From sequence record NC_054649.1: DNA of 47,611 bases; one strand, written 5' to 3'. Positions 2,313-42,194 of the stretch are shown one piece after another (within the stretch, counting starts at the first letter, position 1; each line of letters begins with the position of its first letter). Both the position numbers and the translations under genes were made by a program. This DNA is from Escherichia phage vB_EcoS_swi2. The notes under the pieces are model-generated. The model had not been told where the DNA came from, did not search any database, and was given only the letters and a program-made list of their open reading frames with translations.

Positions 2313-4734
2313 TATAATAAATGCTCCTTTGTGAATTTGATGTATATTGTATCACGATGACTGAATGGCATATTCGTACATGTCGTCGCTGTATTCGCTC
2401 ATGGTCAGAGTTGTTGTGCCGTCACTTCCCGGATTCTTCTGGCTGACAACCCACAACGTGGTATCAAGCTCTTTCTCAGTGCTCAGCACGTAACGAGATT
2501 CTGATTGCACGTTTGTACCATCCCAGATGTTTAACTTGAAATCTGATGGCAGATTGCAGGTGAATGTATGCAATCCAGTTACTGTGGCTGGCAATCTGTC
2601 TGATACGCTGCCGTCAGAACTGGTAATCACAACATAAAGATTATCATCAGCCGTTAGCTGCTCGCTGGTTGTGAGTGCGTTCCCGTTACGCGCTTCAATA
2701 ACGCCAGTCTGTTGCACGTCATCGTACATATCTACAACCTGAATCATGTCACCTACGTTAACCCATTCACCATCTGCCAGCGCTTTAATTTCCATGCTGC
2801 GACGAGAGTAAATCAGCCTGCGACATTCAAGGATTGCCCGGTCAACAGCCTGATATCGATTGCGAACATAAAGCATGTCGAATTTCTTCGCTTTAGTTGG
2901 CTCGCCTTCTACAATTCCGCTGTTGGTAATTCTATAGTAAACGTTGGCCTGCTTATTCGTTGTTGGGTCTCGATATTCGACGTTAACGCCATCATAAGTG
3001 CCGGGAAGGCTGATATCGTAACTCAGTTTGTAGCCATCGCTCTGCGTGTTTCTGGTATTGAATACAGTAGCTGGATATTCGCGTTTTTCATCACGCGAGA
3101 AACTCATCACTCCATCATCCCAGAATGCGGTGACACGCGCCGCATCGCAGATGGTCTGCAGGCGTTCACCGATGCTCTTATCCTCATCGTCAAACGTATA
3201 ATCGAAATACCCAAGTCGCTCATCAGGCAGGCTATCGGCAATTTCATACAGCTTCACGATGTCGATCGTGTTTTCTGGATTGCCAGCGGTAATCAGCCAG
3301 TTATGCAGAACAGCATCAGCAAAGCTACGAGATGGTGCAAGTGTATAGCGCACCGTGCCAGTATCCCGGTTGTATCCGATGGTATGACGCATGATTAGCG
3401 CATTATATTTCCTGTCACGGCTTCCTGTTGCGTTCTCCGTTGCGCGCACGATAACCTTAACCACCGTATCATCTGGATACGAAACGTTTCTGCGCGTGAC
3501 GATTGAATGCACTTCATCAAGCTGAATGATTGATTCTTGGGTGCTGTTGTTTGTCCTTGTAAACTGAACTGCGTATCTGGCGCTACCATATGATGGCGTT
3601 ATTTTTCTTGTGTAATAGTAGGTATCTGCTCCTCCAGCCACAAAGGTATATGTGGTTGATTGGTATGAACCTGCAATCTGCACGTTATCATCATCCACCG
3701 CCCACCACTCAGCTTTGACAATAGCACCCTGATCTTCACCAAATTGAGCAACAAAGTGGAACCACAGCTGATCACCTTCTATTGGTGAGAAATACGGACC
3801 TGAAACAAGAGGTTGGTTATCAGTAAGGTTGAAGTAAGTGTTATTGATGGTTGCGCCACTCAAGGATGATATCGGTGCGCCTGAGTAGTTGATGTTATTA
3901 ATTATAAATGTATACCAGTAATCAACGGGTGGAATATTTCCATCATCCGTTTCTGATGCTGACACAAGACTACCTGACAAGGTGACGTTTTCAGTGACCG
4001 ACGTGCCGCCGCCAAGCGCGTAAGTGATGTTTAGTTTGAAAACCACATCATGAGGCATAACCAAATCAACAAAGTAATCGAAAGCGGAATTTTTTGGTAT
4101 TTTTACAGCTATTTGTCCGCCAGCAAAGTCAGTGCTGGTCACCGATGTTGTTGTGGCTGACTCAATGACAACAGAGTTAGTGTCGTTTGGCCCATACAGT
4201 TCCTGACCGTCAACGTCATCAAATGCGTAAGGTTCAAGAACAACAGGGATAACTTCTCCAGGCTGATAAATGGTGTAACTAGCGCCAGCCAGAGAGCCGA
4301 GGTTTGATTCCGAATAACGCACAGAAGATACATCATACTTACCGAGGCCAAAGTTCATGAACTCGGTGACGTATTTAATATTATTGATGTATTCGAATAA
4401 TGATTCCTGAAGTAAGTCAGGAAACGCACGAATCTGTCCGAAGTTATCAGGGCGCGCCTCGCCGTTACGAGCAATGTTAGTCTGTGCCTTCAGGCTGGTA
4501 TTTGGTGATGTTTTTGAGCTGGTATCCGTTTTGGGTGTGGATACCTTCGGCGTAAGGAAGGAGAAAATCTTCGTTACTGGTTTCAGTATCGCACCGATCA
4601 GGTCGCCGATTGCGCCGGATGGCTGACAATAAACGTTGACAACGTCGCCATCGCGCAGGCAGAAGGAAAGCTCATCATCTTCACCAAGCACTCTGCCATT
4701 TACCGCAATTGAAATGCTGGCAGGAAGATTTGAT

Positions 4735-6189
<1,455 letters not shown>

Positions 6190-10313: not shown

Positions 10314-10319
10314 ATTATA
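10314..10319 (-). promoter_or_regulatory. Minus-strand -10 element (TATAAT) upstream of the chaperone gene
   Basis: Perfect TATAAT on minus strand about 20 nt upstream of ATG 10293. Confidence 0.3.
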
Positions 10320-10333
10320 TCATCTCAGTGGTG

Positions 10334-10362
10334 TTGACACCTGCTAGGTGGTGATGTAGATT
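10334..10362 (+). promoter_or_regulatory. Sigma70-type promoter TTGACA-N17-TAGATT
   Basis: -35 TTGACA 10334-10339, 17 nt spacer ending gtgatg, -10 TAGATT 10357-10362; 35 nt upstream of ORF 10398. Confidence 0.6.
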
Positions 10363-11831: not shown

Positions 11832-11840
11832 GATTATATC
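11832..11840 (-). promoter_or_regulatory. Extended -10 promoter element (TGnTATAAT) on minus strand upstream of major tail gene
   Basis: Minus-strand TGATATAAT about 35 nt upstream of ATG 11796. Confidence 0.35.
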
Positions 11841-11847
11841 ACAGGTG

Positions 11848-11876
11848 TTGACAGTGATTATTTTGTGGTGTAGATT
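11848..11876 (+). promoter_or_regulatory. Sigma70-type promoter TTGACA-N17-TAGATT driving the noncoding/tRNA region
   Basis: -35 TTGACA 11848-11853, spacer ends gtggtg, -10 TAGATT 11871-11876; no plus-strand ORF follows, tRNA lies downstream. Confidence 0.5.
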
Positions 11877-12344
11877 GTATTTCAGATAGTTTTCGTGAGC
11901 GACTTTGCGGACTTTTTAGAAACTGATCACAAAGATAAATGCAAACGAAGAAATGTATCTGGCCGTAGCTTAACAGCTAAACACAAGTGAGGTATTCCAG
12001 TTCCTCATCAACGAATCTTGCGCACTGGCCCGGTGTGATTAATAATGGGCACACAACGGAAAGAGCATTACTGGTGACGGAGACTAGCGATTAGCTATAT
12101 GCGAAAGTTCTAGAAGCCAAGGCGGTTCGACTCCGCAAGTGCTCTTTCCGGTGTGGTGAATGCGCAGGCTGATGCGCGCAGGAGAGCTTCGGAAGAACAA
12201 GGTGCCTGTATACAAGCCGGAGATCAGCACCGGCCACCACAATACTTAACATCCAGCATTATCGCAATCATATGTAGGGGTATGTATGGGTTACGGGGCT
12301 GGATGTTAAGAAAGCACGCTGGCAATGCTTAAACCAGCACTTAT

Positions 12345-12421
12345 GGACGCGTAGCTTAATTGGTTAAAGCAACCGACTCATAATCGGCTGATTGAAGGTT
12401 CAAATCCGTCCGTGTCCACCA
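12345..12421 (+). tRNA. tRNA-Met (anticodon CAT; could alternatively be Ile2-type)
   Basis: Acceptor GGACGCG pairs with CGTGTCC, D-stem GCTT/AAGC, anticodon loop CTCATAA, T-loop TTCAAAT, 3-prime CCA encoded; terminator follows. Confidence 0.75.
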
Positions 12422-12427
12422 AATTAA

Positions 12428-12452
12428 AAGCCGCTTTATGCGGCTTTATTTA
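12428..12452. terminator. Terminator hairpin after tRNA
   Basis: gccgc tttat gcggc followed by tttatttatttc. Confidence 0.55.
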
Positions 12453-15667: not shown

Positions 15668-15713
15668 GTTTAAATCTCCTGTTGTTTGATTAGCATGATT
15701 TTAGCATATTACT

Positions 15714-18943: not shown

Positions 18944-18970
18944 CAATAAAAAACCCGCATTGTGCGGGTT
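18944..18970 (-). terminator. Minus-strand terminator/attenuator hairpin
   Basis: aacccgca / tgcgggtt stem followed on minus strand by TTTTATT. Confidence 0.45.
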
Positions 18971-18974
18971 CAGT

Positions 18975-22168: not shown

Positions 22169-22505
22169 GGTTAACTCTCCACGGTTAGTTTGTGGTCGAA
22201 TTATAACACAGGGAGATATAGCACCATGAGGCGGTAGCCAGCGCAAATAATGGCGAATTGGTGAGTGCGTATAGCGTGAGAAAGTAAGTGATAGGGATTA
22301 TGTTCATGGGCTACCTCCTGATTAAATGATAGCAGCCCATGATGAACAAAAGATATACGGAGTTAGTCTGAAATCACATCATCCATAAATGCAAGTGCAG
22401 CACCTGACAGGCAGAACAGAGCGCCATAGCAAATCATCTGGTACAGAGTGTCAGCCTCAAATACCCTTGCGAATGCGTAGGCTGATAATATCCAAAGCAA
22501 TGGAA

Positions 22506-24698: not shown

Positions 24699-24735
24699 TT
24701 CCACATCACCTTTTCCGTTGTGGTACAATCTACGT

Positions 24736-24773
24736 CAATAAGTATTGACTAAGTGATGTAGAAACGTCAAGAT
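24736..24773 (+). promoter_or_regulatory. Promoter-like region with conserved GTGATGTAGAAA motif
   Basis: TTGACT 24745-24750 and GTGATGTAGAAAC 24753-24765; exact -35/-10 assignment ambiguous. Confidence 0.35.
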
Positions 24774-27693: not shown

Positions 27694-27736
27694 TCTGCCT
27701 CCTGTTCAAATAATGATTAATTCTATCACAACGACT

Positions 27737-31826: not shown

Positions 31827-31871
31827 ATGTCACCGATAAAAAATCCCTCACGATGGAGGGATTATAGCATG

Positions 31872-33573: not shown

Positions 33574-33670
33574 AGTGGTATCTCCGGTAAGCCTGATGTA
33601 GATATACTATGCGCTCGGTGTAGATTGGTCAAGTGTGGTGATGCGGATTTATCAACAATAATAATAAATG

Positions 33671-33699
33671 TTGAAGTGGATATAGTGGTGATGTAGAAT
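33671..33699 (+). promoter_or_regulatory. Sigma70-type promoter TTGAAG-N17-TAGAAT
   Basis: Spacer ends ggtgatg, -10 TAGAAT 33694-33699; three more copies of the TGATGTAGA motif lie within 100 bp upstream. Confidence 0.5.
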
Positions 33700-33733: not shown

Positions 33734-33889
33734 ATGTTTGAGACTAAAAAAGAATGCGAAGCGTACATTGCCGAAACTTATGGTGCTGATTACGTTAAAT
33801 TTGGCATCGTTACCGCCCAGAAGGTTGGCCCAACAGTCGCCAAGATGCTTGGCATCAAAGAAGGTTACTACCCATCAAATGCCTACTAA
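33734..33889 (+). CDS. Small hypothetical protein
   Basis: 51 aa ATG-initiated ORF (MFETKKECEAYIAETYG...) with upstream AAGGAAC; preferred over TTG-initiated track ORF. Confidence 0.35.
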   Translation: MFETKKECEAYIAETYGADYVKFGIVTAQKVGPTVAKMLGIKEGYYPSNAY

Positions 33890-33893
33890 TTAC

Positions 33894-34091
33894 ATGCCGA
33901 GATGCCTTCGTGAAATACCGAAGGCGAAAGTTAAACCAAGAAATCAAGCGATAAAAGAGGCAAAAATTGAGGCTTTCAATATTGCCATTTCGATAATAAA
34001 AGACAGATGCAGAAATGAAAAGTCTGAACGCATTAAATCAAACATGTATGCAGCTGTGAGTGATATATCAAGATTGAGAGATGAGCTTTAA
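33894..34091 (+). CDS. Small basic hypothetical protein
   Basis: 65 aa ATG-initiated ORF in frame of track ORF 33738..34091. Confidence 0.3.
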   Translation: MPRCLREIPKAKVKPRNQAIKEAKIEAFNIAISIIKDRCRNEKSERIKSNMYAAVSDISRLRDEL

Positions 34092-34117
34092 GCCCTCGAA
34101 TGAGGGCTTTATTTTAT
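34090..34117. terminator. Bidirectional terminator hairpin
   Basis: agccctc gaat gagggct followed by TTTATTTTAT. Confidence 0.55.
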
Positions 34118-35538
34118 CGCCTGCGCCGGATTAGCATTCCACTACCGCGCTGAACTATATGGTCATTAAGTGCGTAACGAACCGCGTCCCAATAGTGGTT
34201 GTATGCATCAACAATATCAGTCAGCACATTCCCTGTCAGCTTATCAACTTTGTAGCTGTACATTACCGCCTCATTCTGCATCTCCTTGCATCGCTCATGA
34301 ATGATGATGCTGTCACAGCCACGCAGCCACGTTACACCATCCTCAACGCTTCCCGGCCATTTCGTGCACGGGTGGATATCGAATCCAGAACGCTTGATGT
34401 GACTGATGGTTTCAGGTCGAGCGCAGTCGGCATACCATCGTGCGCGCTTAGCCATCGGGAATGATTGCTCCATCGCAGCCGGTGTATCGGTAATCTCAAG
34501 CCCCACCTTGCCGTACTCGCGATTAATATAAATGTTGCGCCGCCCACCTGGTAACTCCTCGATGTAAACCTCAACCATCGCGGTAGGGTCCGTGCTGAAT
34601 CCGAAGTCCATCCCGAAATATGGGCCATGCCATTCAGGTTTGACCTCGAAGTTATCAATTCGCCACTTGCCGCCGAAGACCTGTTCGTCGCTACGCTTGT
34701 TGAACTTGCCTTCCCATATCCACATGTAGCGGTCGAAATCGACGCGCTTCATTTGCTCCATAGCGGATGGCAACGGCGTATCCCAGAACCACGGGTTGTC
34801 TGAATAGTTACATTCGATAATCAGAATTTCATCATTTTCGAAGATGCCATCAACCATCTGTGAGTGATAGGGGGCAATCCAGTTTTTCCATGTGGGGTCT
34901 GTTTCCTTGTTTGGGTTGAATGAGCACCACAGTTCGGAATTGGCAGCACGGATGGTAGGCACAAGAATATCCCAGCTTGTCTGGCTGACGTTCTCTGCTT
35001 CCTCTACCCAACCGACGGTAATCCCAGCAAAACCCTTAACTGTAGTCTGATTGCGATACAACCCCTTAAAGCGAAATTTGGCCTTAGTCTTTTTGTGTGT
35101 TATCTCGTTGTTGATAACGCGAAACTCTGCCGATTCACCCTTGCGGGCTATCTCATCAACAAGCTCCTGATAGCTTGAGTCTTCAATGGATTGCTGAATC
35201 TCACGAAAACAGGCAAAGCGGTCAGGGCGAAACCTTGCGCGCTCAGTGAGTATAGTGATAATCGTTCTTGTCTTGCCTGACCCGCGGCCACCGTAGATAA
35301 ACTTGAATCGTTTTGGGTAAAGCAGGCGCTCCAGTTTTGCGGGAATCAGGTGGTCAGCATGAGTGGTTGCATTTGTCACGTCATCAACGCCAGTGGCGGT
35401 CATCCTTAGCCGTTTGATGACGTTTTTCTGTATGTCGCAGATGCCAAAAATGGCTGACTCGGCGACATCTGTCATTTCATCATCAATCTGCGCTTCCAGC
35501 TTTTCGATTGCCAGCGCGGAGAGGCGTTTACGAGCCAT
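34114..35538 (-). CDS. Terminase large subunit
   Basis: Walker A YGGRGSGKT near N-terminus, 474 aa, position upstream of portal. Confidence 0.85.
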   Translation of the reverse strand: MARKRLSALAIEKLEAQIDDEMTDVAESAIFGICDIQKNVIKRLRMTATGVDDVTNATTHADHLIPAKLERLLYPKRFKFIYGGRGSGKTRTIITILTERARFRPDRFACFREIQQSIEDSSYQELVDEIARKGESAEFRVINNEITHKKTKAKFRFKGLYRNQTTVKGFAGITVGWVEEAENVSQTSWDILVPTIRAANSELWCSFNPNKETDPTWKNWIAPYHSQMVDGIFENDEILIIECNYSDNPWFWDTPLPSAMEQMKRVDFDRYMWIWEGKFNKRSDEQVFGGKWRIDNFEVKPEWHGPYFGMDFGFSTDPTAMVEVYIEELPGGRRNIYINREYGKVGLEITDTPAAMEQSFPMAKRARWYADCARPETISHIKRSGFDIHPCTKWPGSVEDGVTWLRGCDSIIIHERCKEMQNEAVMYSYKVDKLTGNVLTDIVDAYNHYWDAVRYALNDHIVQRGSGMLIRRRR

Positions 35539-35666
35539 TGGCTAGCCCCTGAAGGATAGTTGCCACCTCTTCATCGCTCATTGCTTTGTCAAATGTAACG
35601 CTGCGAGCACTGCTGTTGCGTGGCAATAGCACCTCATCACATTTTGATTTATAGTTATTTGCTTCA

Positions 35667-36086
35667 TCATCCATTCTGCTGCTCCAGCAATTTCTCCAGT
35701 CGCTCAAGGCGCGCGGCGAGTTCGGTAACTTCGGCAATATCCAGTCCCGTCCTGATAACCTCAGCAAACGTTTTACCAATGTCCACAGGTATAACGCCAG
35801 CGGCTATGCCACGAATAACAGCATCAATCTTCTCGACTGGAGTTCCGTCATCAGGGAAATCCACCTCAAACACTGGTGCTACAGGCTTAGGCAGCGGACT
35901 GAATCGAACGATAAGCTCCTTCATCATTGACGTGTCACGCTCAATCATCGCCATCTCAACGATGGTGTCATAGAGCTTTTCCTCACTAAACCCCTTCCGC
36001 TCAAGAGCTTCAACGAGCAACTTGCGCTTATCTTTTCCGCGTTTATTTTGTGGTTGATTTTCTTTACTGAATAGCTTTTTAGCCAT
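35667..36086 (-). CDS. Putative terminase small subunit
   Basis: 139 aa basic N-terminus and C-terminal coiled-coil, immediately upstream of large subunit. Confidence 0.45.
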   Translation of the reverse strand: MAKKLFSKENQPQNKRGKDKRKLLVEALERKGFSEEKLYDTIVEMAMIERDTSMMKELIVRFSPLPKPVAPVFEVDFPDDGTPVEKIDAVIRGIAAGVIPVDIGKTFAEVIRTGLDIAEVTELAARLERLEKLLEQQNG

Positions 36087-36163
36087 AGATAAAACCTATC
36101 AATATTCCGCTTTTTTTCCGTTATTCGATATTGTAACAGATTCTACACCATGACGTTAATGGC

Positions 36164-36190
36164 AAAAAAAGAACCCGCACAAGGCGGGTT
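36164..36190 (-). terminator. Minus-strand rho-independent terminator separating early-left genes from packaging genes
   Basis: aacccgc / gcgggtt stem followed on minus strand by CTTTTTTT. Confidence 0.6.
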
Positions 36191-36394
36191 AAAGGTTGGG
36201 TGATGATATGAGTGAAGCAATGGTGGTTATGCGTTTATTGTACACCATCACTATCACGCTTGCCAGCATAGCACCATGCGTTTTCTGTTTGCGTCTGCAC
36301 ATGAACGATTTCAAGCGCATCAGGGAATGTCTTTGCCACCTTAGCGATGAAATCGTCCAGTTCGTGCTGTTTCGCGAGTTGCCAAACTTTCTGT

Positions 36395-36574
36395 TTAGTG
36401 GTTTGCATTAGCATAATCTCTCGTTGAGCACATGCACTTAATGTTATGCACGCCGTTATCAGGCACAACCTCAATGCGATTGCCGAGCTGCACCATCATG
36501 TAATGACAGGTCATCATGCAATCCCAGTAGCGTTTCCACATAAATTCCATTGCGGCGTTGATGTCGTCAAACAT
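36395..36574 (-). CDS. Small Cys/Met-rich hypothetical protein
   Basis: First ATG of the track ORF. Confidence 0.3.
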   Translation of the reverse strand: MFDDINAAMEFMWKRYWDCMMTCHYMMVQLGNRIEVVPDNGVHNIKCMCSTRDYANANH

Positions 36575-36674
36575 AATGCACAACTCCTGCAATAGCTGCT
36601 ACCAGCGCCAAAACATAAACAGCAAGGAAAATTTTAGCGCCAGTGGTGTATCGGCGTCGTTGGTGTTTGGTCAT
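36567..36674 (-). CDS. Small transmembrane peptide
   Basis: 35 aa ORF MTKHQRRRYTTGAKIFLAVYVLALVAAIAGVVHYV with GGAGAT RBS; not in track. Confidence 0.3.
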   Translation of the reverse strand: MTKHQRRRYTTGAKIFLAVYVLALVAAIAGVVHYV

Positions 36675-36720
36675 CTCAATATCTCCACTAAAGCGTGCGC
36701 CACATAGAGCGCACTGATAA

Positions 36721-37038
36721 TTAATATGAACGGGTACTATTCACTTTTAGCCAGGCTTTCGAATTGCTGAGCGCGATGTCAAACTGAAACCTCTTGACAA
36801 CATCGTCAAACATGACAAATTCGCCTTCATGGTCTTCAGTCATGTCAGCACAGCAGTTCGGACTGAATGTGTCGCAACCACCAGTATTAAGATCGTATCG
36901 CTTGAGTTTTACGATATTTGATAAATTAAGCGCCAATACAGCAAGGTCATAAACCTCTTCGGCGGTATAACCTGCACCATGTCCATACATTTTAATGCGC
37001 GATATTATTTCTTCTACTCTTTGTTTTGTGATTGTCAT
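36721..37038 (-). CDS. Hypothetical protein
   Basis: 105 aa ORF. Confidence 0.4.
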   Translation of the reverse strand: MTITKQRVEEIISRIKMYGHGAGYTAEEVYDLAVLALNLSNIVKLKRYDLNTGGCDTFSPNCCADMTEDHEGEFVMFDDVVKRFQFDIALSNSKAWLKVNSTRSY

Positions 37039-37451
37039 TTTTTATCAACTCCTTTACGAAGCTGGGCGGCGAACTCGTTAAGTGATATGTAGCAATCTCC
37101 AAATGTTAACGAACCGCTCGACTGCATATGCTCCATAGCCATCTCCACTCCCTGCGCCCGTACTTCAGCCAGGAAGGCGTCGGTTGCTGGTGTTTTGTTG
37201 TCGCACATCAATTCAATCGCGTCGTTCCCATCAAGATTGCAGAACTCCCATGCTGACGAATAGAACTCGATGCCAGGCCAGACCAAGATTCTATTCATTT
37301 TGTCATTTAGTGTCGCATTCTCCGCTGCCAACGCAGCGCATTTAGCTTCGAGTTCCGCGTAGTCCTCGTAATTAACATAAGCACCATCGCCACACTCATC
37401 CATAGACATGCTACCAAAAGCAGAAATGTCATAACGCTTAACTTCACTCAT
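37035..37451 (-). CDS. Hypothetical acidic protein
   Basis: 138 aa ORF. Confidence 0.4.
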   Translation of the reverse strand: MSEVKRYDISAFGSMSMDECGDGAYVNYEDYAELEAKCAALAAENATLNDKMNRILVWPGIEFYSSAWEFCNLDGNDAIELMCDNKTPATDAFLAEVRAQGVEMAMEHMQSSGSLTFGDCYISLNEFAAQLRKGVDKK

Positions 37452-37681
37452 ACCCTAACCCCAATAATTTCTTCATAATAACCATCTTCTTCAAACTCAA
37501 TCTTTGCGATTGTGAGAGCATCCTCATCTGTGATGTCAATTGCTTTGAATTTGCACTTTGCCAGCACAATGCAGCCTGACAGGATTAACCACTTATTCCA
37601 CCAGCGCGCTCGCTTGACTGTCTTGCACGCATACATTGCGTTCCGCACAAACCAGAACTCATATGTTTTTACTTTTGCCAT
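37448..37681 (-). CDS. Hypothetical protein
   Basis: 77 aa ORF. Confidence 0.4.
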   Translation of the reverse strand: MAKVKTYEFWFVRNAMYACKTVKRARWWNKWLILSGCIVLAKCKFKAIDITDEDALTIAKIEFEEDGYYEEIIGVRV

Positions 37682-37717
37682 ATCATCACCATTAAAAATA
37701 AGAGAGCTGAATCGATA

Positions 37718-37900
37718 TCAGAATACGATAATCAACTCATCCATTACTCTTCGCTTACCTTCACCATTAAAAACGCGCACAACGCGATTTACGCGAATAG
37801 ATTCCATTGCATTACGTGCTTTCTTGCTCATAAAGTTCTGCGCGCCAACGTGTCCAAGTTCTTGTTCCAGCTTCTCGCGACGATAGATAGTTTTTGCCAT
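37718..37900 (-). CDS. Small basic hypothetical protein
   Basis: 60 aa ORF. Confidence 0.35.
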   Translation of the reverse strand: MAKTIYRREKLEQELGHVGAQNFMSKKARNAMESIRVNRVVRVFNGEGKRRVMDELIIVF

Positions 37901-38080
37901 TTATTTCGCCTCGCAAGAGTTAGTGATTGACTTAATGCGACGGCGATACAGCTGCATTATGTGCTCGTTATGCCAGTTGCTCATTCTGTTACTCCTTATA
38001 ACCTGATTTGGAAACTGCTACTGCGATAATGATGAGCGCCACGATAACCAGACTGGCGATAATTTCAAATGATGCGCCTG

Positions 38081-38227
38081 TCATTTGCTCAACCCATACG
38101 CTGAGATTAAAGCCTGCATTGCTGCGTTCCAGAATGCTTCAGCAGGAATGCTGTTGTTTGTGCGCTCAACTGCAATGCGTGCCATAGCCTGCGCATCTTC
38201 AAATTCTTCACGGTCTTTGATTTTCAT
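38081..38227 (-). CDS. Small hypothetical protein, first gene of leftward early operon
   Basis: 48 aa ORF with GAGGGTGA RBS directly downstream of minus-strand promoter; not in track. Confidence 0.4.
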   Translation of the reverse strand: MKIKDREEFEDAQAMARIAVERTNNSIPAEAFWNAAMQALISAYGLSK

Positions 38228-38257
38228 CTCTTCACCCTCGTTTGTTCCGATGAGTTC

Positions 38258-38286
38258 AATCTACATCAACGATGATTCTACGTCAA
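38258..38286 (-). promoter_or_regulatory. Sigma70-type promoter on minus strand, TTGACG-N17-TAGATT
   Basis: Minus strand reads TTGACGTAGAATCATCGTTGATGTAGATT; drives leftward early genes. Confidence 0.6.
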
Positions 38287-38292
38287 CAGCAA

Positions 38293-38675
38293 GTTACCCA
38301 AATAACGCAAAATCCGGTAACTCGGAACATAAAAACCGGTAACTGTTACAAATCAATTACTTATGTTGTTTTATACCATTTTTGCCATTAAAAAGTTACC
38401 GGAGTTACCGGTCGTCCGGTAACTTGAAACCCGCGAACAGCAAGGCTCTCAGGCGAGTTACCGGATTTACCGGGTAACTCCTTACATATATAAAAGGGTT
38501 GAATTTCTTATTATATATATGATTTATAAGCATTTTATTCAATTTTGATACAAATTCTCATTTTTGAAATTTTTATAGACTCATATGCAAAAAATCCGGT
38601 AACTCCGGTAACTCTATATCTATCAGTAACTTGCATCGGTAACTGATCGGTAAAAACCCGGTAACTCCGGTAACT
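38293..38675. repeat. Iteron array: at least 12 copies of CCGGTAACT / AGTTACCGG in both orientations flanking an AT-rich core (putative origin or operator region)
   Basis: Copies at 38314, 38336, 38395, 38403, 38416, 38456, 38471, 38596, 38605, 38637, 38658, 38667 plus variants; AT-rich about 100 bp at 38485-38590; no ORF. Confidence 0.7.
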
Positions 38676-38715
38676 ACTGTAAAGATGTGTAAGTTAGAAC
38701 GTTATCTTGCTGTCG

Positions 38716-38744
38716 TTGACGTGTACATAATATTCATGTATATT
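38716..38744 (+). promoter_or_regulatory. Sigma70-type promoter TTGACG-N17-TATATT for rightward replication operon
   Basis: -35 38716-38721, -10 38739-38744, AAGGAGGA RBS and ATG at 38770. Confidence 0.55.
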
Positions 38745-38769
38745 TTTTACATCACAAAAGGAGGACTGA

Positions 38770-39048
38770 ATGTACCCAGATGGCACTAAATTAATGTTTG
38801 CATACGAGCTGTTATCTTCAATGAAATCTGGAGAACTGGTTGGTATTCACTTCGAGAATGAATACTCAAGCGAAATAATCAAAGGAGAAAAGGAAAATTG
38901 CTGTTGTGTAGTGATCGATGAAAAGTACCGCATGACGCACAACATGTTCAGGTCTTACTGCACCAGAATAGCCAATGAACAAGGTATGGTCATCAAAACA
39001 AAAACCAGTGAAAGCAAAAAATTCATGTATATCTGGAGAGTCCTCTGA
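38770..39048 (+). CDS. Hypothetical protein, first gene of rightward operon
   Basis: 92 aa ORF with strong RBS. Confidence 0.45.
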   Translation: MYPDGTKLMFAYELLSSMKSGELVGIHFENEYSSEIIKGEKENCCCVVIDEKYRMTHNMFRSYCTRIANEQGMVIKTKTSESKKFMYIWRVL

Positions 39049-41946: not shown

Positions 41947-41975
41947 TTGACTGTGATGTAGAATCATTGTAATTT
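41947..41975 (+). promoter_or_regulatory. Sigma70-type promoter TTGACT-N17-TAATTT
   Basis: Contains conserved GTGATGTAGAATC spacer motif. Confidence 0.45.
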
Positions 41976-41981
41976 ACTCAC

Positions 41982-42026
41982 ATGAAACAATCAATCGTTA
42001 CTTGCAATGAAACAATTAATCGTTAC
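41982..42026 (+). repeat. Tandem 20-bp direct repeat ATGAAACAAT(C/T)AATCGTTAC x2
   Basis: Copies at 41982-42001 and 42007-42026, 19/20 identical, 5 nt apart, immediately downstream of promoter. Confidence 0.7.
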
Positions 42027-42041
42027 AATAGAGGATAAGAA

Positions 42042-42194
42042 ATGGCTATCACCGTTAAGAAGTGCGAGGTTTGCGGAAATGAGTTTATCGGAACTGCAAA
42101 AGCAAAATGTTGCTCAGGAAAGTGCAGATTGCGCAAGCACAGACAGAAGAAAAACCCAATTCATAACTCAAAAACAGATAATGGAATATCTTGA
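42042..42194 (+). CDS. Small zinc-ribbon protein
   Basis: 50 aa ORF with C-x2-C ... CC-x3-C; GAGGA RBS; overlaps HNH start. Confidence 0.35.
   Translation: MAITVKKCEVCGNEFIGTAKAKCCSGKCRLRKHRQKKNPIHNSKTDNGIS

Follow-up and report, generated by a model that had tools for sequence, protein, structure and literature searches.

The junction and its setting

The junction described here separates a block of small genes from the packaging genes of Escherichia phage vB_EcoS_swi2 (NC_054649.1), and the 47,611 nucleotides of that record which were analysed are referred to as the window. The window is related, at 84-91% identity, to the Skate-like siphophages of Salmonella, E. coli, Shigella and Klebsiella (D10, C1, DS8, KFS-SE2 and Skate). 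In the Skate record the structural genes are co-directional and are interrupted by short opposite-strand modules and numerous terminators; in the window the direction of the structural genes is the minus strand. Read on that strand, the junction consists of the stop codon of a DUF7334 gene, a spacer of 45 nt, a hairpin (AACCCGCCTTGTGCGGGTT), a T tract (CTTTTTTT), GCCA, the hexamer TTAACG, TCAT, the motif GGTGTAGAATC, the element TGTTACAAT, a leader of 43 nt and the ATG (36086) of an open reading frame (ORF) of 139 amino acids (Table 1). Genomes of Skate-like phages are deposited nearly without regulatory features, and the junction alone would be a matter of routine annotation. No analysis of packaging mode, promoters or terminators was found in the Skatevirus literature searched for such terms.

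Homologous junctions were drawn from 36 viral contigs reached via the downstream 139-aa protein, from 38 loci found in two pattern scans, the majority of which were the homologous junction, and from 11 metagenome contigs together with GenBank records. Counts of promoter conservation refer to 24 distinct sequences, all of which carry the window's class of the downstream 139-aa gene.

Table 1. Features of the packaging junction and extended -10 elements of the late modules, in window coordinates.
Feature	Position	Strand	Description
Block promoter	38258..38286	-	canonical, TTGACG-17-TAGATT; starts the leftward small-gene block
DUF7334 gene	36235..36408	-	57 aa; last gene of the upstream block
P1, promoter-like	36237..36266	-	CTGGCA-18-TACAAT, with TACAAT in ATGGTGTACAAT; in the 3' end of the DUF7334 gene
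CA-rich stretch	36191..36230	-	conserved, G-poor, core CATCACC; between P1 and terminator
Terminator stem-loop	36172..36190	-	AACCCGC-CTTGT-GCGGGTT (AACCCGCCTTGTGCGGGTT); 7-bp stem, 5 G-C pairs, 5-nt loop
T tract	36164..36171	-	C + T7 (CTTTTTTT), directly 3' of the stem
-35-like hexamer	36154..36159	-	TTAACG, 4/6 match; 18 nt upstream of TACAAT
Promoter motif copy	36139..36149	-	GGTGTAGAATC, copy of the -10 region of a -35-type promoter motif (TAGAAT 36145..36140); spans about -28..-17 of TGTTACAAT
Extended -10, packaging junction	36130..36138	-	TGTTACAAT; TG 36138..36137, hexamer TACAAT 36135..36130; predicted start 36122-36126
Leader of packaging-gene mRNA	36087..36129	-	roughly 40 nt; weak Shine-Dalgarno TAGG; direct repeat CGGAA..N6..CGGAA
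139-aa ORF	35667..36086	-	small-terminase candidate by position only
48-aa ORF	35528..35674	-	overlaps both neighbours; annotated in relatives D10 and SeSz-2
terL	34114..35538	-	Pfam Terminase_3 7.6e-35, Terminase_3C 1.4e-11; PHROG terminase-large-subunit families
Extended -10, portal	31869..31861	-	TGCTATAAT
Extended -10, endolysin	27728..27720	-	TGATAGAAT
Extended -10, head block	22208..22200	-	TGTTATAAT
Extended -10, head-tail block	15706..15698	-	TGCTAAAAT
Extended -10, major tail	11841..11833	-	TGATATAAT
Extended -10, tail block	10322..10314	-	TGATATAAT
Extended -10, minor tail	6175..6167	-	TGCTAAAAT
Extended -10, tailspike	2354..2346	-	TGATACAAT

A conserved terminator after the small-gene block

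The hairpin begins 45 nt past the TAA (36237..36235) of the co-oriented DUF7334 gene and folds with a predicted energy of -10.6 kcal/mol (z = -2.7), a stability equalled by 4 of 200 shuffled sequences. A hairpin followed by a T tract of 4-8 T was present at the homologous position in every relative, that is, in all 34 loci of one set and in all related loci of the pattern scans. The terminator is thus kept in about 60 related phage loci, and the changes in its stem are compensatory. At least six stem and loop versions were found, comprising CCCGC/GCGGG with the loop CTTGT, TTCG or TCCG, GCCAGC/GCTGGC, CCCTC/GAGGG and a few intermediates with a single mismatch. Among 12 distinct hairpin variants 96.4% of the cells were paired and three of the seven pairs were changed on both sides, giving a covariation score that none of 500 shuffles matched, and controls in slid registers reached at most 47.6% pairing. 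The homologous site in Salmonella phage Skate (NC_054639) carries the annotation 'terminator'.

On the evidence of sequence and covariation the element at 36190..36164 is confirmed as a genuine Rho-independent terminator, far beyond chance, and it is the first strong one downstream of the block promoter. It resembles enterobacterial and phage intrinsic terminators in its G+C-rich hairpin of 7 bp, its loop of 5 nt, its U7 tract, its position after a stop codon and its compensatory stem. It differs from the usual ones in that its T tract is also the joint of a mosaic and replaces the -35 region of the next promoter. A bidirectional terminator was ruled out, the plus strand having no T-run after the hairpin. 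When positions 35500-38800 were compared with Rfam at E values up to 1, only a sub-threshold match to the Trp leader was returned (23 bits against a gathering score of 41), and this was due to the hairpin.

An extended -10 element ahead of the packaging genes

Downstream of the terminator, the sequence CTGTTACAAT places TG at -15/-14, one base before the hexamer TACAAT, and this TG is found in 24 of 24 relatives. The hexamer agrees with TATAAT at five of six positions, including the A at position 2 and the T at position 6. The complete element, TGnTACAAT, is invariant in all 24 distinct sequences, the n being T or A. The stretch just 3' of the T tract, which would hold a -35 box, varies freely among the same sequences, and TTAACG is not conserved, CATGCG or similar standing in its place in the Klebsiella-type sublineage. 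The other two classes of the downstream gene carry TGTGGTAAGAT or TGTGTTAAAAT and TGTGTTAAACT, of the form TGnTAnnnT, at the equivalent place, 9-19 nt past the T tract and 33-36 nt ahead of the ATG. These two classes have no GGTGTAGAAT insert, and their position equivalent to the -35 falls inside the terminator. Since TGnTACAAT is invariant while the -35 region is variable, and since the other classes keep an equivalent element, we place the main promoter of the packaging genes at TGTTACAAT.

In these respects the element resembles the extended -10 promoters of sigma-70 that do not depend on a -35 box: it has TG at -15/-14, A at -11 and T at -7, an unconserved -35 region, and a variable n between invariant flanks. 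It differs from a typical promoter of this kind in that a second conserved -10-like hexamer (TAGAAT) lies 4 nt upstream.

A recurrent promoter motif between terminator and extended -10 element

That second hexamer is part of GGTGTAGAATC, which begins 14 nt past the T-run. As an 11-mer, GGTGTAGAATC has three copies with at most one mismatch against 0.6 expected, a marginal excess since 3 of 100 shuffles reach three. The related 12-mer TTGAYGTAGAWT occurs in six exact copies and seven with one mismatch, nearly all of them intergenic and ahead of genes; at up to two mismatches there are 37 copies against 16.3 expected, a number not reached in 100 shuffles, and GTAGAWT occurs 18 times against 9.2 expected. 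At 10334, 11848, 33671 and 38286, TAGAWT sits 17 bp from a TTGACA-like -35, and TTGAYGTAGAWT is therefore read as the -10 region of a promoter class that contains a -35 box. From the end of the motif to the ATG the distance is typically 28-41 nt. The motif also stands ahead of blocks containing structural genes (24738..24727), so motifs of the GGTGTAGAATC type are not late-specific.

Copies of TTGAYGTAGAWT were located at 10351, 15715, 24727, 27738/27766, 33593-33699, 38258/38275, 41953 and 44980/44990. Usually two copies are found per control region, direct or inverted, and they overlap -35 or -10 hexamers. In addition to forming a promoter core, TTGAYGTAGAWT may serve a phage regulator as operator.

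The first-pass annotation of this DNA had described a strong minus-strand terminator at 36164-36190 ending the leftward small-gene block, and a copy of the promoter motif about 20 bp further on. The terminator is borne out by its geometry, energy and covariation, and its coordinates are right. The motif copy is likewise real as a recurrence at promoter-like sites and as a member of the enriched TTGAYGTAGAWT family; its coordinates hold, and the gap between T-run and motif is 14 nt rather than the larger distance given.

The upstream block and the extended -10 elements of the late modules

The upstream block comprises about ten small genes of unknown function, divergent from the replication genes. 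Pfam and PHROG scans of seven of them (two small ORFs and a putative membrane ORF being left out) gave families of unknown function and one weak Lar-like match. The block promoter adjoins the control region of the replication genes, which is rich in GTTACCGG repeats. This gene content fits an early block, a timing that we infer from content, and the class of promoter differs on the two sides of the terminator.

Between the small-gene block and the primase/helicase genes, the divergent control region (38314-38674) holds ten copies of GTTACCGG, often as AGTTACCGG and in both orientations, and the whole window holds 12 copies against 0.6 expected. These repeats are iteron-like and may represent an origin or an operator array.

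For the late genes, the window was scanned for TGn followed by a hexamer that has A in its second place, T in its sixth and at least five of six matches. Of 16 such sites on the minus strand, nine lie 25-43 nt ahead of the Shine-Dalgarno sequence and ATG with which a late module opens. One of the nine is TGTTACAAT, and the other eight stand 25-36 nt ahead of the gene that opens each morphogenesis or lysis module (Table 1). The zone 20-45 nt ahead of minus-strand starts makes up about 2-3% of the strand, and by this rough estimate nine of 16 matches would be far beyond chance. At the nine sites the best -35 match is 1-4 of 6. The other promoter type, represented by 12 sites, has a -35 with 4-6 of 6 matches at 17 bp in seven cases, none of which has TGn. 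Several of the module elements are conserved in relatives. The pattern suggests two promoter classes split by gene function, a -35 type found mostly with early, accessory and replication genes, and an extended -10 type found with late modules.

Because every late module has its own extended -10, the junction is best regarded as one of many module boundaries and not as a single early/late switch. The earlier description of an early/late boundary is right in that an early-type block ends at the terminator and promoter elements follow; it overstates the case in that this is one junction among many, with a timing deduced from gene content. The further proposal that packaging and structural genes are controlled here as one does not hold, as the unit behind the junction spans about 2 kb and each later late module has its own extended -10.

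At the portal gene (31842-31869, minus strand) TGCTATAAT abuts a terminator, AATCCCTCCATCGTGAGGGATT, and the ATG follows 8 nt past the T tract. Transcripts from this promoter would begin within the hairpin and escape termination, and upstream transcripts would stop. The arrangement shows compensatory stem changes and is found in at least ten upstream contexts among relatives. A terminator with nearly the same stem, GAACCCGCACAATGCGGGTTT (18951-18971, minus strand), follows a major-capsid-like gene, and the next gene would need read-through because its ATG is only 18 nt away.

The packaging genes

The 139-aa ORF adjoins terL in the window and in its relatives, and on this position it had been labelled the small-subunit gene of the terminase. 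The ORF belongs to PHROG 9747 ('unknown function'), it had no Pfam match and no sequence match in the PDB, and all 120 listed homologues are without a functional name ('hypothetical', 'coil containing' or unnamed). Its AlphaFold2 model is all-helical, three short helices at the N terminus being followed by a long one at the C terminus (predicted local distance difference test score, pLDDT, 73), and structure and sequence comparisons gave no fold similarity to solved TerS structures and no other small-terminase match. The leader ahead of the ORF is unstructured, its fold being no better than that of shuffled sequences.

The unit of the 139-aa ORF and terL ends against a convergent plus-strand gene at 33738..34091. 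The hairpin at 34090-34109 has a T-run for the plus strand only, and because it has none for the minus strand, terL transcripts probably run antisense into the gene at 33738-34109. This gene, inserted convergently right after terL, has its own promoter (TTGAAG-17-TAGAAT at 33671) and its own terminator.

The T tract as a mosaic joint

Relatives are identical through the T tract and then fall into three classes, which follow the type of 139-aa protein encoded downstream (about 100%, 54% and 45% identity). At least ten combinations of upstream and downstream sequence share the terminator (loci L003-L038 and L161-L209). The upstream types are the Salmonella-type DUF7334, the Klebsiella-type DUF7334, an HNH endonuclease, a membrane ORF and a DUF7334 deletion, and the downstream types are the three protein classes with their sub-variants. 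It is precisely at the hairpin or the T tract that the relatives cease to be homologous. From these alignments, the T tract is a recombination joint, and the modules on its two sides appear to have been exchanged among relatives.

Linkers at module boundaries are known from mosaic tailed phages, the 'boundary sequences' of lambdoid phages among them. The present joint resembles these in that homology breaks at a short conserved regulatory element which is shared by many combinations; it differs in that the shared element is a terminator hairpin with its T tract. Terminators that act as exchange points for modules would be useful for engineering or reducing genomes. A genome end at the junction was also considered, since several GenBank and IMG records have an end no more than 50 bp away, and was rejected, the records being opened at the ATG of the gene or circular.

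P1 and the CA-rich stretch

P1 lies 46 nt ahead of the terminator hairpin, and ATGGTGTACAAT, which holds its TACAAT, is almost the same 12-mer as the element that follows the terminator. The -10 of P1 is found in five contexts, as TACAAT in most, as TATAAT behind the HNH gene and the membrane ORF, and as TAAAAT in L190 and L191; in L038 the sequence TTGGCA-18-TACAAT stands in a non-coding remnant. The P1 hexamer is followed by about 8 nt of variable sequence, then by the conserved G-poor CATCACC stretch and then by the hairpin, which is the only structure predicted to fold. The P1 cassette may encode an RNA of 47-66 nt, or may act as a leader for read-through.

Some other readings of this region were discarded. 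An antisense ORF on the plus strand (start 36208, Shine-Dalgarno GGTGAT), which might have accounted for the conservation of the CA-rich stretch, is stopped in the same frame after two codons in Klebsiella-type relatives, and the match of CCTTTAAC to boxA is too weak. A degenerate search of viral contigs for the CA-rich stretch (ATCATCACC..CTTTAA) returned unrelated contigs only.

Mechanism and alternative explanations

As an observation the junction is ordinary and real, a module boundary that carries a terminator followed by a promoter. From the elements found, their conservation, the covariation and the genome-wide pattern we infer termination, initiation, the start used and the timing as follows. 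Host sigma-70 RNA polymerase would start at 38286..38258 and transcribe the small-gene block, and most transcripts would end at the Rho-independent terminator (hairpin 36190..36172, U tract to 36164). The packaging unit, consisting of the 139-aa ORF, the 48-aa ORF and terL, would restart at TGTTACAAT, with a start near 36124 and a leader of about 40 nt. As the terminator occupies the place of the -35 box, this promoter must rely on its TG extension, and an extended -10 without a -35 would be the same design ahead of every late module. The upstream GGTGTAGAATC would be a diverged copy of a -10 region, used as a minor second start or bound by whatever recognises that motif. We regard it as likely that the junction is of this kind, a boundary between transcription units at which a terminator is followed by a -35-independent extended -10 promoter for the packaging unit.

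Several observations weigh against this. The spacing of 43 nt between TACAAT and the ATG is somewhat longer than at the other eight sites. Strict extended -10 matches are not enriched window-wide (32 against 28 +/- 5 expected), and it is their positions that carry the argument. The conservation of ATGGTGTAGAAT in 20 of the 24 relatives is unusual for a mere spacer, and the sequence is for that reason possibly the start site or a second start. Some late genes follow terminators that leave no room for a promoter (18971..18951, with 18 nt to the next ATG). Literature and database searches found no transcript 5' or 3' ends for the Skatevirus group. Elsewhere read-through clearly has a share in late expression, and it may have one at the packaging junction.

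The first-pass annotation had taken TAGAAT within GGTGTAGAATC as the working -10, and TGTTACAAT would then be incidental or secondary. We consider this possible though rather unlikely. The persistence of ATGGTGTAGAAT and the enrichment of the TTGAYGTAGAWT family, in which TAGAWT is the -10 hexamer paired with a consensus -35 at 10334, 11848, 33671 and 38286, speak for it, as does the near-identical layout at 41953 (TTGACTGTGATGTAGAATCATTGTAATTT). However, the junction copy has no TGn and no -35 at 17 bp (the best match being TTTTGC, 2/6), ATGGTGTAGAAT has two mismatches to the 12-mer TTGAYGTAGAWT against 0-1 in the other promoter copies, and the motif lies about 53 nt ahead of the ATG (36086) against 28-41 nt elsewhere. 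Of the four relatives that depart from ATGGTGTAGAAT, two (L009 and L016) have TGGAAT and thereby lose the critical A at -11, and the other two have GGCGTAGAAT (GGCG). Moreover, the motif is absent in the two other gene classes, where only the extended -10 remains. As the promoter of the packaging genes TGTTACAAT is therefore better supported, and GGTGTAGAATC at 36149..36139 may be a weak second promoter or start, or else an operator or other protein-binding site. The outline of the original interpretation, a terminator that closes the block with promoter elements behind it, remains; its choice of promoter element and its idea that the junction gates the later genes do not, and its small-terminase label stands as a candidate by position. 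Correcting the likely promoter element is one part of the result and of modest value.

The packaging mRNA might instead come mainly from 38286 or from P1 by leaky or factor-assisted read-through, the terminator being an attenuator and the promoter-like hexamers behind it adding little, in a manner resembling pR'-tR' of lambda with Q or gp39 of phage P23-45. The recurrence of P1 with a conserved leader in five gene contexts, one of them non-coding, agrees with this, and so do the late genes that follow terminators without room for a promoter (18971..18951). A phage factor with suitable properties is also known, since gp39 of P23-45 spares extended -10 promoters and antiterminates (PMC3351154, PMC3950348). 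Such read-through would nevertheless leave the invariance of TGnTACAAT and of its counterparts unexplained, and the U7 tract and the hairpin of -10.6 kcal/mol predict efficient termination. Furthermore, no antiterminator homologue was identified in the Pfam and PHROG scans of seven of the roughly ten upstream genes, and one locus, L171, is exceptional in having TGCAAT at P1. As the main source of packaging mRNA we find read-through doubtful.

Two other readings take the conserved sequences to serve something other than expression of the packaging genes. It is very unlikely, in our judgement, that the sequences between terminator and ATG are primarily packaging signals in the DNA, that is, a pac site for the small terminase, even though the whole sequence past the T tract changes together with the type of the 139-aa protein, giving three classes, and the leaders contain short direct or inverted repeats (CGGAA..CGGAA in the window's class, two copies of ACGAAAA in another and the palindrome TGAGTTACTCA in the third). 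The pac region of SPP1 reportedly overlaps promoters and the 5' end of the small-terminase gene. At the junction, however, the invariant positions are those of the extended -10, which has eight paralogous sites ahead of non-packaging genes, and simple linkage would also make the sequence co-vary with the downstream gene. The GenBank record ends near the site reflect the convention of starting at the gene, or circular records, and the packaging mode is not reported in the Skatevirus literature searched for it. A gene for a non-coding RNA of about 47-66 nt, made up of P1, the CA-rich leader and the terminator, whose main task would be to end that RNA, is likewise unlikely. The -10 persists, in places in a better form, in unrelated upstream contexts and is followed by a variable discriminator and a conserved transcribed stretch. 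The AU-rich stretch, hairpin and U7 tail found here resemble the 3' module of Hfq-type RNAs. The core CAUCACC is complementary to ribosome-binding sites (RBS) of the GGUGAUG type, with a perfect match of 12 nt to the RBS and AUG of the gene at 37681. Against this, no Rfam match was obtained, target scans of the whole window were dominated by self-antisense and G-U-rich matches, and seed and target do not covary: the 12-nt match at 37681 shows no compensatory change in relatives, and relatives with a changed RBS keep the seed. Complementarity is moreover cheap, GGTGATG occurring 37 times genome-wide against 6.6 expected, and Klebsiella-type relatives probably translate the stretch as part of a DUF7334 extended at its C terminus.

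Comparable systems and a possible promoter-class switch

In phage lambda the promoter pR', the 6S RNA and the terminator tR' form a late-gene leader with antitermination by Q. The promoter-like P1, followed within 30-45 nt by a strong terminator ahead of the packaging genes, would resemble that arrangement, which differs from the present one in that here a separate promoter follows the terminator and the late genes are split into many units by opposite-strand modules. No candidate for a Q-like gene, a Q-binding element or a pause signal was identified, and no dedicated search for them was made.

The window's two promoter classes divided by gene function, with intrinsic terminators before and between late genes, recall the layout of Thermus phage P23-45 (gp39/gp76). 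Its gp39 blocks -10/-35 promoters, spares the extended -10 promoters of middle and late genes and antiterminates at intrinsic terminators (PMC3950348, PMC3351154). It differs from the phage studied here, which has an enterobacterial host and in which no homologue of gp39, gp76 or AsiA was identified among the eight small ORFs scanned, none of which was informative as to a protein binding the beta-flap or sigma region 4. Since no homologue was identified, the comparison is only an analogy. By that analogy one may speculate, tentatively and with the odds against it, that Skate-like phages time expression by a switch of promoter class, a small phage protein blocking -35 recognition and suppressing termination in the manner of gp39 or of AsiA of phage T4. 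If so, TTGAYGTAGAWT/-35 promoters would be silenced, the nine extended -10 promoters would be active, and polymerase would pass the terminators before packaging, portal and other late genes. The cassette of P1, CA-rich stretch and terminator would then be a loading site for read-through, or a separate regulatory RNA of 50-65 nt with a seed resembling an anti-Shine-Dalgarno sequence. For Skate-like phages, now under development against Salmonella, E. coli and Klebsiella, the promoter map proposed here is testable, the -35 type standing ahead of early, accessory and replication modules and the extended -10 type ahead of every late module.

Further observations in the window

The abundant GGTGATG is found on both strands, in coding and in non-coding DNA, at a frequency that none of 100 shuffles reached; promoter motifs and the Shine-Dalgarno sequence GGTGAT explain only part of it. 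A tRNA gene with the anticodon CAT (12345-12421, plus strand) is preceded by the consensus promoter at 11848-11876 and closed by a terminator (12427-12447); a transfer-messenger RNA called by ARAGORN at 12047-12421, overlapping this gene, looks spurious. On the plus strand at 41982-42026, in the leader between the motif at 41953 and a Shine-Dalgarno sequence and ATG near 42082, two tandem copies of ATGAAACAAT(C/T)AATCGTTAC stand 25 nt apart.

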